A stretch of 64,000 nt of DNA. Origin: Octopus sinensis (taxonomy: Eukaryota). The first letter of the stretch is position 1, and each line of letters begins with the position of its first letter. The position numbers were made by a program, and so were the translations under genes. The notes under the pieces are model-generated. The model searched no databases. It was not told the DNA's origin and was given only the letters and a program-made list of their open reading frames with translations. Below, in pieces: positions 21,471-63,211 of this stretch. Where the stretch lies: NCBI RefSeq assembly GCF_006345805.1, contig NC_043006.1, positions 21,452,001 to 21,516,000 of the forward strand, in the 5' to 3' direction.

Positions 21471-21658
21471 TTGGCAATTTTTTTCCCTCTGTCTTCCGTT
21501 CTCTGGATCTTTCCTTCTCCTGTGTTTCCGACGAAGAGCTCCGCTCGAAATGTTAAACCCTCCTTCTTTCCTTCTTTCCTGAGTGTCCAATAATACAATA
21601 TTTGTTCCACGTCCTCGTGTTGTTGTGTTTTTTTTTGTGCTTTCTTGTTTGGATTAAC
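21471..21658 (+). mobile_element. (TA)n-embedded element family A with hammerhead-like motif (PLE pseudo-LTR-like)
   Basis: GTTT CCGACGA A GAGC TCC GCTC GAAA TG TT AAAC at 21524-21558; 3' end GGATTAAC|TATATA; five copies in the window. Confidence 0.7.
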
Positions 21659-23159
21659 TATATATATATATATATGTATATATATATATATATATACATA
21701 TATATTCAATTATATATGTGTGTGTGCATACATGCATATATATATATATATAATATATATATATATGTATGTATGTATGTATATATATGTGTGTATGTAT
21801 GTATATATGGATGGATGGATGGATATATGCATACATGTATTCCTACATATACGAATACGTAGTAGCTACTTGCATTTACGGATAGATAGAGAGTGTGATA
21901 ATATTTGATTTGGTTATGTTTTCCATACGAAAGCAAAACATTATTCGGTGACACAACACGATATTAAACAAAATAAATATATTAAATTAGATATCCTGTA
22001 TCTATTTCCGGATGACTATTCTGGTGATTCTTGTGTTGATTCTTGTGTTAACCTACGATAAGAATCAACAGGTTATTCGGAGATATTTGTAACGATAGTC
22101 AACATTTCCTTCTGGGAGATCTGATTAGCATTCAGGGTATATAAATATCCTCTAAGGTATACAAATATCCTTCAGAGTATGTCAAATCTAGAATATATTT
22201 CGTAAACACAAATCAATACCAAACAAAATCTTTCTATGCGCTAATTTAAAGATAAACTAGACGCAAACATAAGTCGTTGGTTTGAATGATCACCAACAAC
22301 GCAAACTCATTTTCTGTATTACACAATCAGATTATTGGGCTCTTGATACTGTGTCTCATATAGTGACAATGTAGGTTGTTACCACGCCGAACAAAATTCT
22401 TAGCAGCCTTTCTTCTTTTACCTGTATCAGTCCTCAGAGTGCAGCCATGCTGGGACACTAACTGGAAGTATTTTTTTTATACCACTTTGTTTTTATACCA
22501 TTTTGTATAAATAGAATGCTGAGAGCAAACCAGAGAGTTTTTCAACGTTCTTGGAGAGTAAATATAAAGCAGACAGATTTTAAGATATTCTTTAAATGAA
22601 CAGAATTGTTTCACCAGCACCAAATACAGTTTCAGCGATGGGAAAATACATAGAACTAAAACAACTCCCAGAACATGACTATGAAATCCACATCTTGAAA
22701 ATAATTTCTCTTCCAGAACAAAGGTTCACTGTGTGTTTCAAAAAGGTCAAAGATTTTGAAAGACATTTAATGCTATTAACATTTAACGCTACTTGGCTGT
22801 TTGATTTCAATATGTACCAAACTCCAACAGTGGAAGCGACCGGCGACTTATCTGAAAACCCTACAGTAACAAGTGGAGCACCATCCAGAAGTCTCTTTGG
22901 TACTTTTTTCTATCTGCTGTTACTTATAGTTAAATGTGTAGAAATTGCTATCGCTCGGAATAATTTAATTATTGGCTTCGTATCAAGGAGAGTACAGTAT
23001 CTGTGTAAGTGTGTGCGTGTGTGGGTGTACGCGCGCACATGTACGCGCTATTCTAGAACTGCCGTTTCAACATTGAAGATTCCAAACTTGGTGCTGATCT
23101 CAGAAGAATCTTACTGGGTGATTCTGTTAGAATTCTCCAGCCCCTGGGAAGGATATTGA

Positions 23160-23420
23160 GAAGGAAAGCGAAAGAAATAGATTGAATTATGTTAAGGAGA
23201 TGGAGCTATGCCAAAGCAATAGATGTCAAAGAAGGTTTACAAACCAGTCCCTCAGCAGAACCTACGACATGTTGGACATCGTAGGTATCAGTTGACGAGG
23301 GGCCTTCAAGTTGGCTATAAATGTAGCAAAGATTTCTTCAAGATGCTTGTGGATCAGAAGTAAGTGAAAGCCCTGGTAAGAGATCGTGCTACATGGCTGG
23401 AATAGTGCTAAATGAACACA
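23160..23420 (+). mobile_element. Possible decayed RTE-like LINE 3' fragment
   Basis: MPKQ..KKVYKP..LRHVGHRR..KALVRDRATW resembles the RTE C-terminus. Confidence 0.35.
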
Positions 23421-23834
23421 AACTGGGACTTGATCAACCCTGGCAGGAAATCCTAAATCCGATTTCTTAAAGACTCGAAATGCCCAAAGAGTCATCTTTG
23501 ATGATATATCCAAGTGCATCTCAAAATGATGAATGACCAAAAACTATTCGTTAACATGTATGGTTAAGATTAACTATAATTTTGTGCCTTGTCACCATCG
23601 ACAAATTTTTTTACAACATTCTTAATAATGTGCATTTTAATGAAATTTTCTGGACATACACTTGGAAGATGTTGATGATGATACTCTGGATAAAAATATT
23701 TTGAATTTTAGTTGCTCAGAAAACGAGCTCATATCCCATCCGTTTTAAAATATGTATATAATCATTCCACAACATGAAAATGTATGTTGTTTACGTCATA
23801 AGAATCGATATACTTCAAGAGAATGTGAAATAAT

Positions 23835-24328
23835 TCTTTTTTGAAAAAGTGGATCTCAAAGCAGATAAAGCTATAAATAATAGCGTTTAAATATTAAGTC
23901 AAAAATCCCTTCGGATAGATAAAGTTGAAGACTGCCCGTTGGACACGATCCCTTATTTCCTGCTAACGTAATTGGCGCTCAACCTCGTGTAGCCTTTCAC
24001 CTTTTTTCTATCCAAAGAGCTTTGTTAAACAAATATTTATACGTTTTATTTATAGCTTCATCTGCTTTGAGTTCCACCGTTCTTAAAAAGGAATTAAAAT
24101 GTATGACATTAAGCTAATTAATATTATTCATTATCAACATGAAATTCGAAGGCATGATGAAAGAATTTCCGAGTGTACGTTTAACCTTCTATAAGATAAA
24201 CCGGAAGTACTCAATAATTTGAATAATTTCCATCTGTGCTGTTACAGACTAAATATGAACAGATATATTTTTTATCATGCCTTCAAATTTCAAGTTGATA
24301 ATGATTATTATCAATCAGAATAATGTCA
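23835..24328. repeat. Two adjacent degenerate fold-back elements (about 23835-24095 and 24104-24328)
   Basis: GTGGATCTCAAAGCAGATAAAGCTATAAATAA versus TTATTTATAGCTTCATCTGCTTTGAGTTCCAC; TCATTATCAACATGAAATTCGAAGGCATGAT versus ATCATGCCTTCAAATTTCAAGTTGATAATGA. Confidence 0.75.
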
Positions 24329-60212: not shown

Positions 60213-60240
60213 GGATATATATATATATATATATCATTCA

Positions 60241-60450
60241 AAATGTGACCGCCTGTGTACCGATGGCGATTTTTTTCCTCTGTCTTCCCTTCTCTGGATC
60301 TTTCCTTCTCCTATGTTTCCGACGAAGAGCTCCGCTCGAAACGTTAAACCCCCCTTCTTCCCTTCCTTCCTGAGCGTCCAATAATACTATATTTGTTCCA
60401 CGTCCTCGCGTTGTTGTGTTTTCTCTTTGTGTTTTCATGTTTGAATTAAC
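60241..60450 (+). mobile_element. (TA)n-embedded element family A, best-preserved copy
   Basis: GTTT CCGACGA A GAGC TCC GCTC GAAA CG TT AAAC at 60315-60349. Confidence 0.72.
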
Positions 60451-61451
60451 TATATATATATATATATGCAAAGATGAAAGGCAAAGTTTTCTTCGGCGTT
60501 ATTTGAACTCAGATGGCAGGGACTCGGAACGGATAGGTTAAAGCATTCTGTCTGGCACCTGAGCCAATTCGCCGCCTATTTGATTTTATTATTTGATATC
60601 CGTGTATTTGTTTTAGATATGGCTGTCCTAGCAATAGCGTTGTTACTGTACATCAAACTGCGTGCGTTGGCTTTACAGTTACACTCTTTCTATACAATTT
60701 TCGTTGTAGCCAACTTCTGCCTCTATTATTGCTGCTATTATTGCAGGTGTAGCTTATCTAACTGCTACTGCTTCGGATTTTTCTTTTCTTTTTTTCTTGG
60801 TTTTGCTTTCTACTTTTTATAAATGTTTCAAATAAAATGAATTTAATTAAACATTAAATATGATTCTATGGATATTAGTGACAAAAATAGAATTAAACAC
60901 AATCAACAAATATCAATTAACTAACACAATTAACTGATAAACAGAGTGAGAGTGAATAAATTTTACTGCAATATCACGTATTAATGTCGACAGATGTTGA
61001 AACAATATATGCGTGTTGACACAAGCCAGCCCACATACGTATATGCATGAATATCTGCATGTATGTGTATACACACACGCACACACACATATGTATATAT
61101 AGTTGCATATGCATTCATACCTATATTTATTCATACCTGATTATATATTCATATATTCATTCATTCATTCATCCTTATATACACGCAAGGAAAATAGCAC
61201 GCAGTGTATATAGACTTGGCTTCATTTAGTCAACTATAAATTATGTATGTGTGTGTGCTCACTCGATTGTGTATTCGATTGATTCGCTCATTTTCGACGA
61301 GGGTTCATTGTTTGGGCAACATAGCTCTGTTGTTGGATCTACTGGACGGACTATTCCAACAACTGACATACCTTCCCTTAACGTAATTCTTAAGCCGAAC
61401 CAGCGTGGCATAAGTGCGACAAGGCTGAACTTTTGAATTAAACCTCTAATC

Positions 61452-61712
61452 CAGTGGTTCTCAACCGTTTTTATCTATGGACCTCTTTGATTCCTATTTT
61501 AATCAACGGACCCGACTCCCGCCATAACCAGTCGATGTTGGAAAAAATTCTATCTTATTTTCCTAATTAGATATTTCGGATTGTATTTCAAAACAGTGCT
61601 AAAATATTTTGTGTCGTAGAAATCTAGGCCTAACCAATTTATTGCACATAAATTTTAACAAAATCTTATATGGATCCCTTAGGGCTGTTTGGACCCCGGT
61701 TGAAACCCACAG
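61452..61712. mobile_element. hAT/Charlie-like MITE
   Basis: TIRs CAGTGGTTCTCAACC / GGTTGAAACCCACAG; imperfect 8-bp TSD CTCTAATC / GTCCAATC. Confidence 0.7.
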
Positions 61713-63211
61713 GTCCAATCCTTTTACCGACGTTCCATACACTTTTTCTGTGTACCTAATTTCACTGTCAAGGCTTGAGTGAATCTGAGGCTATGGCAAA
61801 AGTCACATGTCGAAGAAAATGACATGCAGTGAGATCGAACCAGGCAATTCTTGGTTGTGAAACGAACCTCTTAACAATTAGACGATAGGTAGGACTACAT
61901 TATCTAAAACTTGCGTCTCTTATTTAAGATGTTGGCAAGTGATTTGAGAACTACACATTTATACCTAAGTTATGTAGCACGTTTTCCTAAACAAAAGATA
62001 GAAGGTTTAATTCTAGCCAATCTCCACGGATATAAACTTTTACCCATCTCGTAACCCTCGGAACATTTACTGAGTGCCAAAGTTTAATATTAAATGTACT
62101 TTCTCTTTCCTTATAACATTATAAAGTTTGATACTGGAGAAAGAATTGGTTAAAAATAAAGGTGATAAAAAATATTTTCTCCATCACCAAACTTTGTCAA
62201 CAGTTAAGGTATACGAATGGCTTTCACAACAATTTAGGTATACGACTGGCTAAAATTACATTGCTTTGAGCGCTTAGGAAGGAAAATACAACCGTGTTTC
62301 GTGGTCTGCTACCACAACAGCTCCTTTATAGGATCCAGTTAGCTCAAGACATCATCAGGAGGAACCACGTCCGGTTTCGGCCCCTACTCCTCTACCGTTT
62401 TGACGTGCCCCCCCCCCCTTTCGGGGGTGTCTTCAGCTCTGGTGTTGGGTGCATGTCTTCTTTCTTCTGTTCCCTGGCCTCTTCGATGTATCGTCAGCGA
62501 GTGTCAGCCGGTGACTAACTGACTTGTCAAATTTTTCCCTTTAAATACCTGCCGCTAGGCTCCAGTAGGCAGCCCCAGCAAGTTAACTCATAAAAAATGA
62601 ATGCGATTTTTTAACATCGGTGCACAAAACTACACTAGCACTACATTTTTTTAAAATAACCAGGTAAAAATTTGAAAAAATCCAAGTTGTTGGTAGAAAT
62701 TCAACAAGATCTCATTATTTAACATGTACGTTTCATATGTGAAATGGCAGAGAGTGAATGAGGGAGACACGGCCGCTGTTTTTAGCCGATCGATTGACTA
62801 CGAAGTGGTTTCTTCGCTGTCTAAGAAAGAAAGAACTATATTCGACGAACGTTTTCTCTCATTGTTTATTGATTACAACTGAGATTTATTGTATTTTTTT
62901 TTACTAATCCTTGGACAATATTCTCTATCGGATCATTTATTTTAAATGCTAGATTATTTATCATAAGCTACTCATTAGGAATATAGAAACATTTTCATCC
63001 ATCCACAAGTGAAAATCAAAGTTGTTTTTTTTGCGTGTGTGTATATGTGTGTGGTGTGTGTGTGTGCGTATTTGATTATTTATTTGCTTGGTTCGTTGGT
63101 TGTTTGTTTGTCTGTAGTTTATTCTTTTGCCAGACACATTTCCTGCTGTCATATTGTTATAGTAACTAATGTTAGCAAAATCGTCCAGACAAGTGGCTCC
63201 GAATAATTTTC

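Follow-up and report, generated by a model that had tools for sequence, protein, structure and literature searches.

Penelope-like elements (PLEs) of the Hydra clade, as far as they are described in the parts of Craig et al. 2021 (PMC8557442) used here, have a C-terminal endonuclease, the motifs RWK, DKT, CxCX5C, CxxC and CxH and no CCHH motif, insert in (TA)n and carry a hammerhead ribozyme in the pseudo-long terminal repeat (pLTR). In type-SGC hammerheads, block C is assumed to be unbroken, with A9 joined to G10.1, in the corresponding part of Eckert et al. 2023 (PMC10085705). An excerpted clade list of the R2 superfamily of long interspersed nuclear elements (LINEs), which includes HERO, is given in PMC7650587. 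Here, we compare these systems with a cluster of hammerhead-like motifs in a 64-kb stretch of the Octopus sinensis genome (NC_043006.1, positions 21,452,001 to 21,516,000; the window, with positions counted from its first letter). The cluster probably consists of independent, mostly decayed insertions, namely the 3' ends of Hydra- and Neptune-clade PLEs, together with the tail of a LINE and a unit lacking any open reading frame (ORF), both with a split-core hammerhead fold that likely cuts chained transcripts into units.

A sequence-only reading of the window had listed a set of mutually dissimilar short elements with minimal hammerhead cores. The sequences were found where it had placed them, and searches of the genome itself (2.72 Gb; 687–3264 first-look candidates per family, 40 scored per search) showed that every named element is one copy of a dispersed family. 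Repeat families were delimited by masked self-BLAST and are denoted A (five copies), B (28.0 and 39.4 kb), C (28.8 kb), D (32.7 kb), E (53.1 kb), G (55.1 kb) and F (62.3 kb). As had been claimed, (TA)n is present at the 3' end of all copies of A, B, C, D, E and G and absent at 62.3 kb. Linkage to an ORF was observed for A, C, D, E, F and G, and the identity of the elements is very probable.

The element at 62.3 kb (family F; 62284..62584, minus strand) is a fragment of the 3' untranslated region (UTR) of a LINE with reverse transcriptase (RT) and restriction-like endonuclease. Its motif (62290–62440) had been read as a type I hammerhead, but the parts pair in another order, no type I fold can be formed and neither of the type I descriptors given below matched it. 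Types I, II and III, that is, any circular permutation, were tried and rejected, and a stem II placed directly after A9 was rejected as well, since at least 3 bp could be formed there in only 2 of 34 sequences. A descriptor was written after the type-SGC order of Eckert et al., with the core letters and a non-G cut site imposed. It matched the window at 62352..62412 (minus strand), with the blocks S (CGGT-A-GAGGAGT), G (GGGGCC-GAAA-CCG) and C (GTTCCTC-CTGATGA), a stem I of 7 bp and a stem III of 4 bp; the displaced stem II strand is damaged in this copy (3 bp), and the predicted cut falls after 62393. The exact 46-nt core, which the window copy possesses, occurs 269 times in the genome, compared to 0 for the backwards control.

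Of 80 homologous metagenome loci, 37 have the S-G-C fold downstream of the ORF; it was found in 0/80 reverse complements and 0/80 upstream coding stretches. For stems I and III, we used 36 sequences (the 37 hit loci without the duplicates L376 and L380, plus the window); for the displaced stem II, the window and the spacing outlier L382 were omitted, leaving 34. The filter-free pairs 4–6 of stem III were formed in 34, 33 and 28 of the 36 sequences, compared to shuffle means of 18.7, 26.5 and 18.8, and the filter-free pairs 5–6 of stem I in 33 and 27, compared to 22.9 and 14.4. The displaced stem II strand, which lies about 19–21 nt upstream of the cut, forms at least 4 bp in 33/34 and at least 5 bp in 29/34 (shuffled partners: mean 6.1, maximum 13 in 2000 shuffles), with many pair types and with G10.1-C11.1 in 31 of 33. 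The median identity of the motif regions across the homologous loci was 60%. Stems I, II and III thus all covary; covariation within the family was left uncounted, since the copies decay after insertion. An extra helix joining the upstream region to the G–C linker was also observed, without a control. We regard the split-core fold as very probably real, and a catalytic role as more likely than not.

The fold resembles type SGC (HRIMA-1 and variants, in the described part of PMC10085705) in its S, G, C order, the presence of all core letters, the crossing stems and the short link from stem I to the G block. It differs from that description in that the 5' strand of stem II lies upstream of S, so that block C is split, in the extra helix from the upstream strand to the G–C linker, and in its host, a eukaryotic LINE 3' UTR or an ORF-less (TA)n repeat rather than metatranscriptomic RNA. 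The fold would thus work like type SGC, yet is not a member of it as defined, because block C is broken. The literature searched contained no description of this split-core topology. No hammerhead in the tails of HERO or other restriction-like-endonuclease LINEs, and no SGC ribozyme in retrotransposons, was found in the literature searched, which lay mostly outside subscription journals, Repbase reports and the supplements of PMC10085705.

The second occurrence of the fold in the window is at 27482–27556 (minus strand), in family N (27403..27730, minus strand), the end of an ORF-less unit of ~675 nt that is set in (TA)n and forms partial tandems. The family stem II is GGCTG/CAGCC, with CAGGT in the window copy, and a perfect displaced stem II is kept in 15 of the 24 N copies fetched. 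A split-core descriptor matched two motifs in the window, two in the flanks and one in the scattered stretches described below, versus 0–1 in shuffles. Separately, two further split-core families were seen elsewhere (L302 at 2464 and 2875, and L333 at 216), one of them as an inverted pair.

Longer F copies carry the RT/restriction-like-endonuclease ORF. Among the homologs of this ORF, RVT_1 was present in 84 of the 85 longer ones, the named ones were from fish and Branchiostoma, and a zinc-knuckle-like motif and PD..ELTVPWEE were also present; the copy in L362 has CRC..HVLSGC and PDFV..LLELT. The ORF has no GIY-YIG and had no match among solved structures, and the F fragment had none in Pfam. 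In its single long ORF, RT, C-terminal zinc knuckle, PD-(D/E)-type motif and 5'-truncated copies, the element resembles the restriction-like-endonuclease LINEs of the R2 superfamily, and is tentatively called HERO-like. The ribozymes known from R2-superfamily LINEs, as far as the sources describe them, are of the hepatitis delta virus-like kind and occur in R2; family F instead has a hammerhead fold in the 3' UTR.

F copies also form PLE-like partial tandems, unlike known R2-superfamily LINEs. Of 22 loci in the O. sinensis genome that include the ORF start, 6 have a piece of the tail of the same element in front of the ORF, and this piece stops at the fixed 3' end. All five copies examined that have the 5' UTR motif lie behind such a piece, and 5 of the 6 upstream pieces begin upstream of the predicted cut site. 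In the metagenome, where 25 of the hit loci were used for this count, the family N-terminus follows the motif in 8; a ninth match lies inside the UTR itself. Three F copies that share downstream DNA (L066, L067 and L079) were rejected as tandems and represent a segmental duplication. The copies end at a fixed 3' end, 112 nt past the predicted cut, so a linear cut monomer would not serve as template. With the 5' strand of stem II, S, G and C in this order and the cut 112 nt before the 3' end, the fold would, in the scheme that we favor, divide chained transcripts into units. As the copies end beyond the cut and the upstream tail pieces cross it, the template would be either a multimer left uncut or a circle formed by religation of a unit, with copying from an internal start as in PLEs. 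The more general proposal, that HERO-like LINEs and some ORF-less (TA)n repeats have an active four-strand split-core hammerhead of a new topology in their 3' tails, that it cuts chained transcripts into units that are ligated into circles, and that the LINE is copied from such a circle from an internal start to give Penelope-like terminal repeats in a canonical non-LTR retrotransposon, is, like the circle itself, somewhat less likely than not. The 3' UTR (window 62495–62560, minus strand) contains the TATA-like TATTTAAA, with GTCACGTGAC upstream of it in longer copies; together, these could be an internal promoter for the next tandem unit.

LINE proteins usually bind near the 3' end of the element, and the fold is located 112 nt from it. 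We considered the possibility that the LINE-tail fold is a non-catalytic, conserved, knotted binding site for the RT, built of hammerhead-like parts, with partial tandems arising from read-through or template switching. The split core, and the fact that every genomic copy keeps sequence on either side of the predicted cut, are consistent with such a site. However, the complete core with G10.1-C11.1 and three covarying stems is maintained across loci of such low identity, the related SGC ribozymes do cleave (according to the part of PMC10085705 used here), and binding and cutting are compatible with each other. We consider the binding-site explanation unlikely, and return to the reading of the LINE tail as a ribozyme that cuts chained transcripts.

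Families C, D, E and G are truncated ends of Hydra-clade PLEs. Family C (28701..29085, plus strand) has a short inverted 5' arm and an intact type I hammerhead at 28803–28885 (plus strand), with a stem I of 5 bp, a stem II of 6 bp, stem III ACATGTGT and the cut triplet GUC. Family D (32505..33015, minus strand) includes an inverted arm at 32828–33015, and its hammerhead (32628–32716, minus strand) has a broken first stem I pair. Family E occupies 53061..53718 (minus strand), and its hammerhead (53091–53130, minus strand) has lost one base at the cut site and has an altered stem II. Family G (55030..55411, plus strand) is the pLTR of an older element, with an inverted 5' arm and a hammerhead at 55111–55209 (plus strand) that has stem III ACAGCTGT and a weak stem II; masked self-BLAST found further G fragments at 4679..5007, with no strand assigned. 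The D and E families do have the motif claimed for them, with the intact pattern in 7/19 and 16/19 other fetched copies, respectively, but the window copies fail it. The minimal type I layout (CUGANGA, GAAA, UH, stems I and II in C-G-S order and self-complementary stem III) characterizes families C, D, E, G and H (described below), and only C, H and, loosely, G are intact in the window. The palindromic stems III that had been noted are present as pieces of longer stems (ACATGTGT, ACACGTGT, ACTCAGAGT and ACAGCTGT); in family A, the usable part is ACGT only.

A tandem E element in L141, with a unit of 3355 nt and a hammerhead in both repeats, encodes a 643-aa frame with RWK, DKT, YRDD and, at its C-terminus, an endonuclease of the GIY-YIG type without CCHH; 209 nt separate the hammerhead from the start codon that follows in the next unit. 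This protein has 1923 relatives at E ≤ 1e-30 (among 7995 scored), and the best 120 homologs include RW[KR] in 118, DKT in 112, CxCx5C in 114 and [AS]DKG in 0. The ORFs adjoining C, D and G are 32–39% identical to that of E and had no match to the Neptune protein. Endonuclease-like C-termini were found in L147 (D) and L367/L368 (C), while the G copies do not extend that far. Both RWK and DKT are present in E and G, and DKT in C; the single D copy is decayed (RIKRK, AKTK). Cysteine motifs include CNCKNESSC in L116 (CNF elsewhere), CRLC and CRH in E, CTCRYKSTC, CSLC and CKH in D, and CGLC and CKH in C. Pfam gave no match for the E, D and G fragments.

In these motifs, the lack of CCHH, and the (TA)n insertion and pLTR hammerhead seen in C, D, E and G, the four families agree with the Hydra description in PMC8557442. 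They differ from it in that the E unit is 3.36 kb long, above the "generally <3 kb" given there, many E copies have CNF in place of CxC, the stems III are palindromes of 8–10 nt, and the base of stem II is mismatched in E and G. Copies of the PLE families have their 3' end fixed at (TA)n, a variable 5' end and inverted arms, which matches the published PLE layout. Copies of family C end at either of two 3' positions, separated by 152 nt (28934–29085), and the inverted arms stop at 28933; this is longer than the usual PLE tail of 30–40 nt. No RNA data set was listed for family C; contigs from presumed RNA runs cover it, but show neither ends nor strand and are evidence neither way.

Family A corresponds to the 3' end of a Neptune-clade PLE. 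Longer copies continue through a CA-rich UTR into an RT with DKG, CX4CxxC and GIY-YIG at the same locus, and the linked protein has DKG, the RT core, a CX2-5CxxC linker and, at the C-terminus, GIY-YIG with CCHH (ADKGG in L288; GVAMGTRMGP, RYIDD, CSRSRCNTC, LIYCIKC..C..LYVGQT, FAEH and VARHF in L286/L275). The DKG, CX4CxxC linker and GIY-YIG are those of Neptune PLEs (Cervera and de la Pena 2014, PMC4209133), and the hammerhead likewise resembles the minimal Neptune ones of that report, as far as it describes them, with no stem III past the core palindrome, an extra base after A9 and G10.1-C11.1. CTGANGA had been attributed to family A; instead, the copies at 21471..21658 (plus strand; C15.2 changed to T), 36322..36535 (plus strand; GAAA changed to GAAG), 44612..44797 (minus strand; stem II damaged) and 60234..60450 (plus strand) have CCGACGA, and that at 55428..55636 (minus strand) has a deletion in the core. 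The fold of the 60234 copy is complete but for U4C, with ACGT as its stem III and GUU as its cut triplet. Most A copies begin at a single hot spot, which lies ~95 nt ahead of the core.

Exact A cores number 4346 in the genome, 3564 (82%) with U4C and 782 canonical, whereas backwards controls gave 0. Judging by their sequences, the two are distinct subfamilies. CpG decay as the sole cause of the canonical cores was rejected, because the cores are linked to other diagnostic bases; in one diagnostic column, T was found in 30/36 vs. 0/23, in groups that had been selected differently. U4C lowers hammerhead activity in vitro, yet is tolerated in a viroid. CCGA in place of CUGA recurs in several unrelated hammerhead families (window 60315–60350, L187, L208, L298, L305, L307 and L311).

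Family B, which resembles A around the core, is represented by a copy at 39366..39584 (plus strand) with an inverted 5' arm and by a fragment at 27902..28030 (minus strand) that begins inside stem II and so has no CUGA block. The sequence at 39460, also listed as CTGANGA, reads CCGTAGA, and the family core is CTGTAGA (A6U), so that the non-canonical window cores carry U4C in A and both U4C and A6U in B. Both the prevalence of the U4C subfamily and the A6U of B differ from the Neptune description in the part of PMC4209133 used. In 25 further loci, 15 B copies start in (TA)n, though the query itself included (TA)n. A young two-ORF Neptune family, found with PF01541, was considered as the parent of A or B and rejected. 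L209–L215 (e.g., G000:C1:207474000-207479000) contain a young, intact two-ORF Neptune-like PLE (ORF1 479 aa, ORF2 781 aa), whose tail has a hammerhead-like motif starting TTGATAA that resembles a published U3-A8 core variant.

That PLEs have radiated into diverse families in (TA)n, with minimal hammerheads of the dimer type, is borne out by longer members with Hydra (C, D, E, G) or Neptune (A) RT/GIY-YIG ORFs; the link to coding PLEs holds for these five, but not for B, and F is a LINE. In PLEs, the GIY-YIG endonuclease would nick (TA)n and reverse transcription would begin at a constant position immediately beyond the hammerhead and mostly end prematurely, leaving hammerhead-bearing tips. Single, mostly damaged tips are likely inert, because ribozyme activity would require a dimer, as present in tandem transcripts. 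For C, D, E, G and H, the predicted duplex energies of the dimer stems lie between −6.0 and −13.6 kcal/mol; for A, the value is −1.7.

Several points weigh against our interpretation of the cluster. On the PLE side, minimal hammerheads reportedly showed no cleavage as monomers and weak cleavage as dimers in the part of the literature available, Poseidon transposition in vitro did not need cleavage, the ORF linkage of D comes from one locus (L147), and no ORF link was found for B in 25 loci tested by tblastn. On the LINE side, cleavage at the selected site is a prediction, and the conservation of the core letters and of the non-G cut site is not independent evidence, because the descriptor imposed both. 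A9 is not joined to G10.1, contrary to the assumption in the cited part of PMC10085705. The fold went unmatched in 43/80 loci; only 54/80 had at least 400 nt downstream, and 22 of the non-hit loci had at least 300 nt. Both the F and the N copy in the window are damaged in stem II, the intact pattern was present in only 7/24 fetched F copies, within a slippage-prone G-run, and the head-to-tail metagenome contigs could be a collapsed assembly of tandems.

ORF-less hammerhead units do exist in this region, but are not among the elements that the sequence-only reading had listed. Apart from N, family H (2290..2745, minus strand) is an ORF-less unit of 455 nt in (TA)n, with partial tandems and with its type I hammerhead intact. 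Located 27 kb downstream of the window, an array (L309, G000:C10:21536001-21546000, about 5100–8950) comprises six tandem ORF-less units of ~530 nt and an inverted truncated copy, and each unit has an intact type I hammerhead and is set in (TA)n; by its sequence organization, it qualifies as a retrozyme with a PLE-type insertion layout. The motif CCACTGGT is common to the L309 array and to families E and H. H and the array resemble the non-LTR retrozymes of bioRxiv 10.64898/2026.07.22.740005 and PMC7229834, in the parts available, in being ORF-less tandem units with a type I hammerhead, and N is retrozyme-like, but has the split-core fold. H, N and the array fit the retrozyme idea better than the named elements, which, unlike the retrozymes in the available part of that preprint, are single truncated ends of coding elements.

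In the sequence-only reading, every element would be a solo-pLTR or retrozyme-like unit, short and non-autonomous, with a minimal hammerhead that works; some were suggested to cut host pre-mRNA if the region is intronic. The ORF-less units, the hot spot at which most A copies begin, the missing ORF link of B and the intact hammerheads of C and H agree with this. However, longer copies of A, C, D, E, F and G run on into coding elements, and are not ORF-less tandem units. A more fitting description of the named copies is that of 5'-truncated ends of coding elements. In the window, most copies are damaged, and minimal hammerheads on their own reportedly showed no cleavage. Pre-mRNA cleavage is likewise unsupported, as the copies are single, mostly damaged and without a nearby dimer partner, and the 14 window ORFs tested with Pfam had RT, zinc-finger or transposase domains or nothing, with no host-gene domain among them. 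Masking by fetched family loci and simple repeats covered only 47% of the window, which may therefore contain a host exon. We consider the retrozyme explanation for the whole set very improbable, and retain that of decayed coding-element ends, LINE tail and ORF-less unit.

Microsatellites and repeats are abundant throughout the window, and motif counts were compared with dinucleotide shuffles. Under a strict descriptor for type I, which requires CTGANGA, at least 3 bp in each of stems I and II and a self-complementary stem III, only 28808 (family C) passed in the window, and nothing passed in 30 local shuffles. A second descriptor, relaxed after the families had been inspected so as to tolerate U4C as well as a mismatched base of stem II, gave 7 matches (6 distinct motifs) in the window vs. 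0–1 in 10 shuffles, 20 in 200 kb of flanks vs. 0–3, and 5 in twenty scattered 10-kb stretches (200 kb) vs. 0–1. Hammerhead motifs are thus real and above chance, as had been predicted, and the window is richer than a small genome sample; the rate of one motif per 6 kb is a local value and not one for the genome. The best 150 of the 239 Rfam matches for the window include no hammerhead family. That the motifs are chance matches in a repeat-rich genome, as the 39 CTGANGA in the window and the loose descriptor without stem I (2 matches vs. a shuffle mean of 1.7) might suggest, is contradicted by the descriptor-versus-shuffle, control and stem-pairing tests, by their fixed position in high-copy families, by the exact A and F cores against empty backwards controls and by the covariation of stems, and has a negligible probability.

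Other repeats in the window include a decayed LINE at 17613–19700, with RT, zf-RVT and a restriction-like endonuclease motif, which ends at an (ATA)n tract and is presumably R4/Dong-like. Three further fragments, at 30218–31111, 33687–35485 and 48647–49380, come from a mariner-type transposase (HTH_48), a LINE with RT and a DDE_1 transposase, respectively. Three abundant families resemble short interspersed nuclear elements (905–1335 and about 19 other places, 20705–21128 and 6 others, and 1731–2002 and 6 others). A 34-nt minisatellite with 18 copies is found at 15289–15899, and a (TGA)n array of 1.4 kb at 41928–43354.

Six of the seven named families are ordinary, since PLE hammerheads, (TA)n targeting by Hydra elements and thousands of dispersed truncated copies are published biology. 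The seventh, F, is of high interest. If it is correct, the LINE fold would extend hammerhead topologies past the six block orders so far considered possible, would take non-circularly permuted ribozymes out of environmental RNA and into the genomes of animals, and would place a hammerhead in the 3' UTR of an R2-superfamily LINE. Together with the fold, the head-to-tail junctions make a model of retrotransposition from a circular template directly testable. The split-core layout may be a reason why ribozymes in some retroelements are overlooked by descriptor searches, and the presence of U4C in the most amplified A subfamily is relevant to the question of whether cutting by PLE hammerheads is needed at all.

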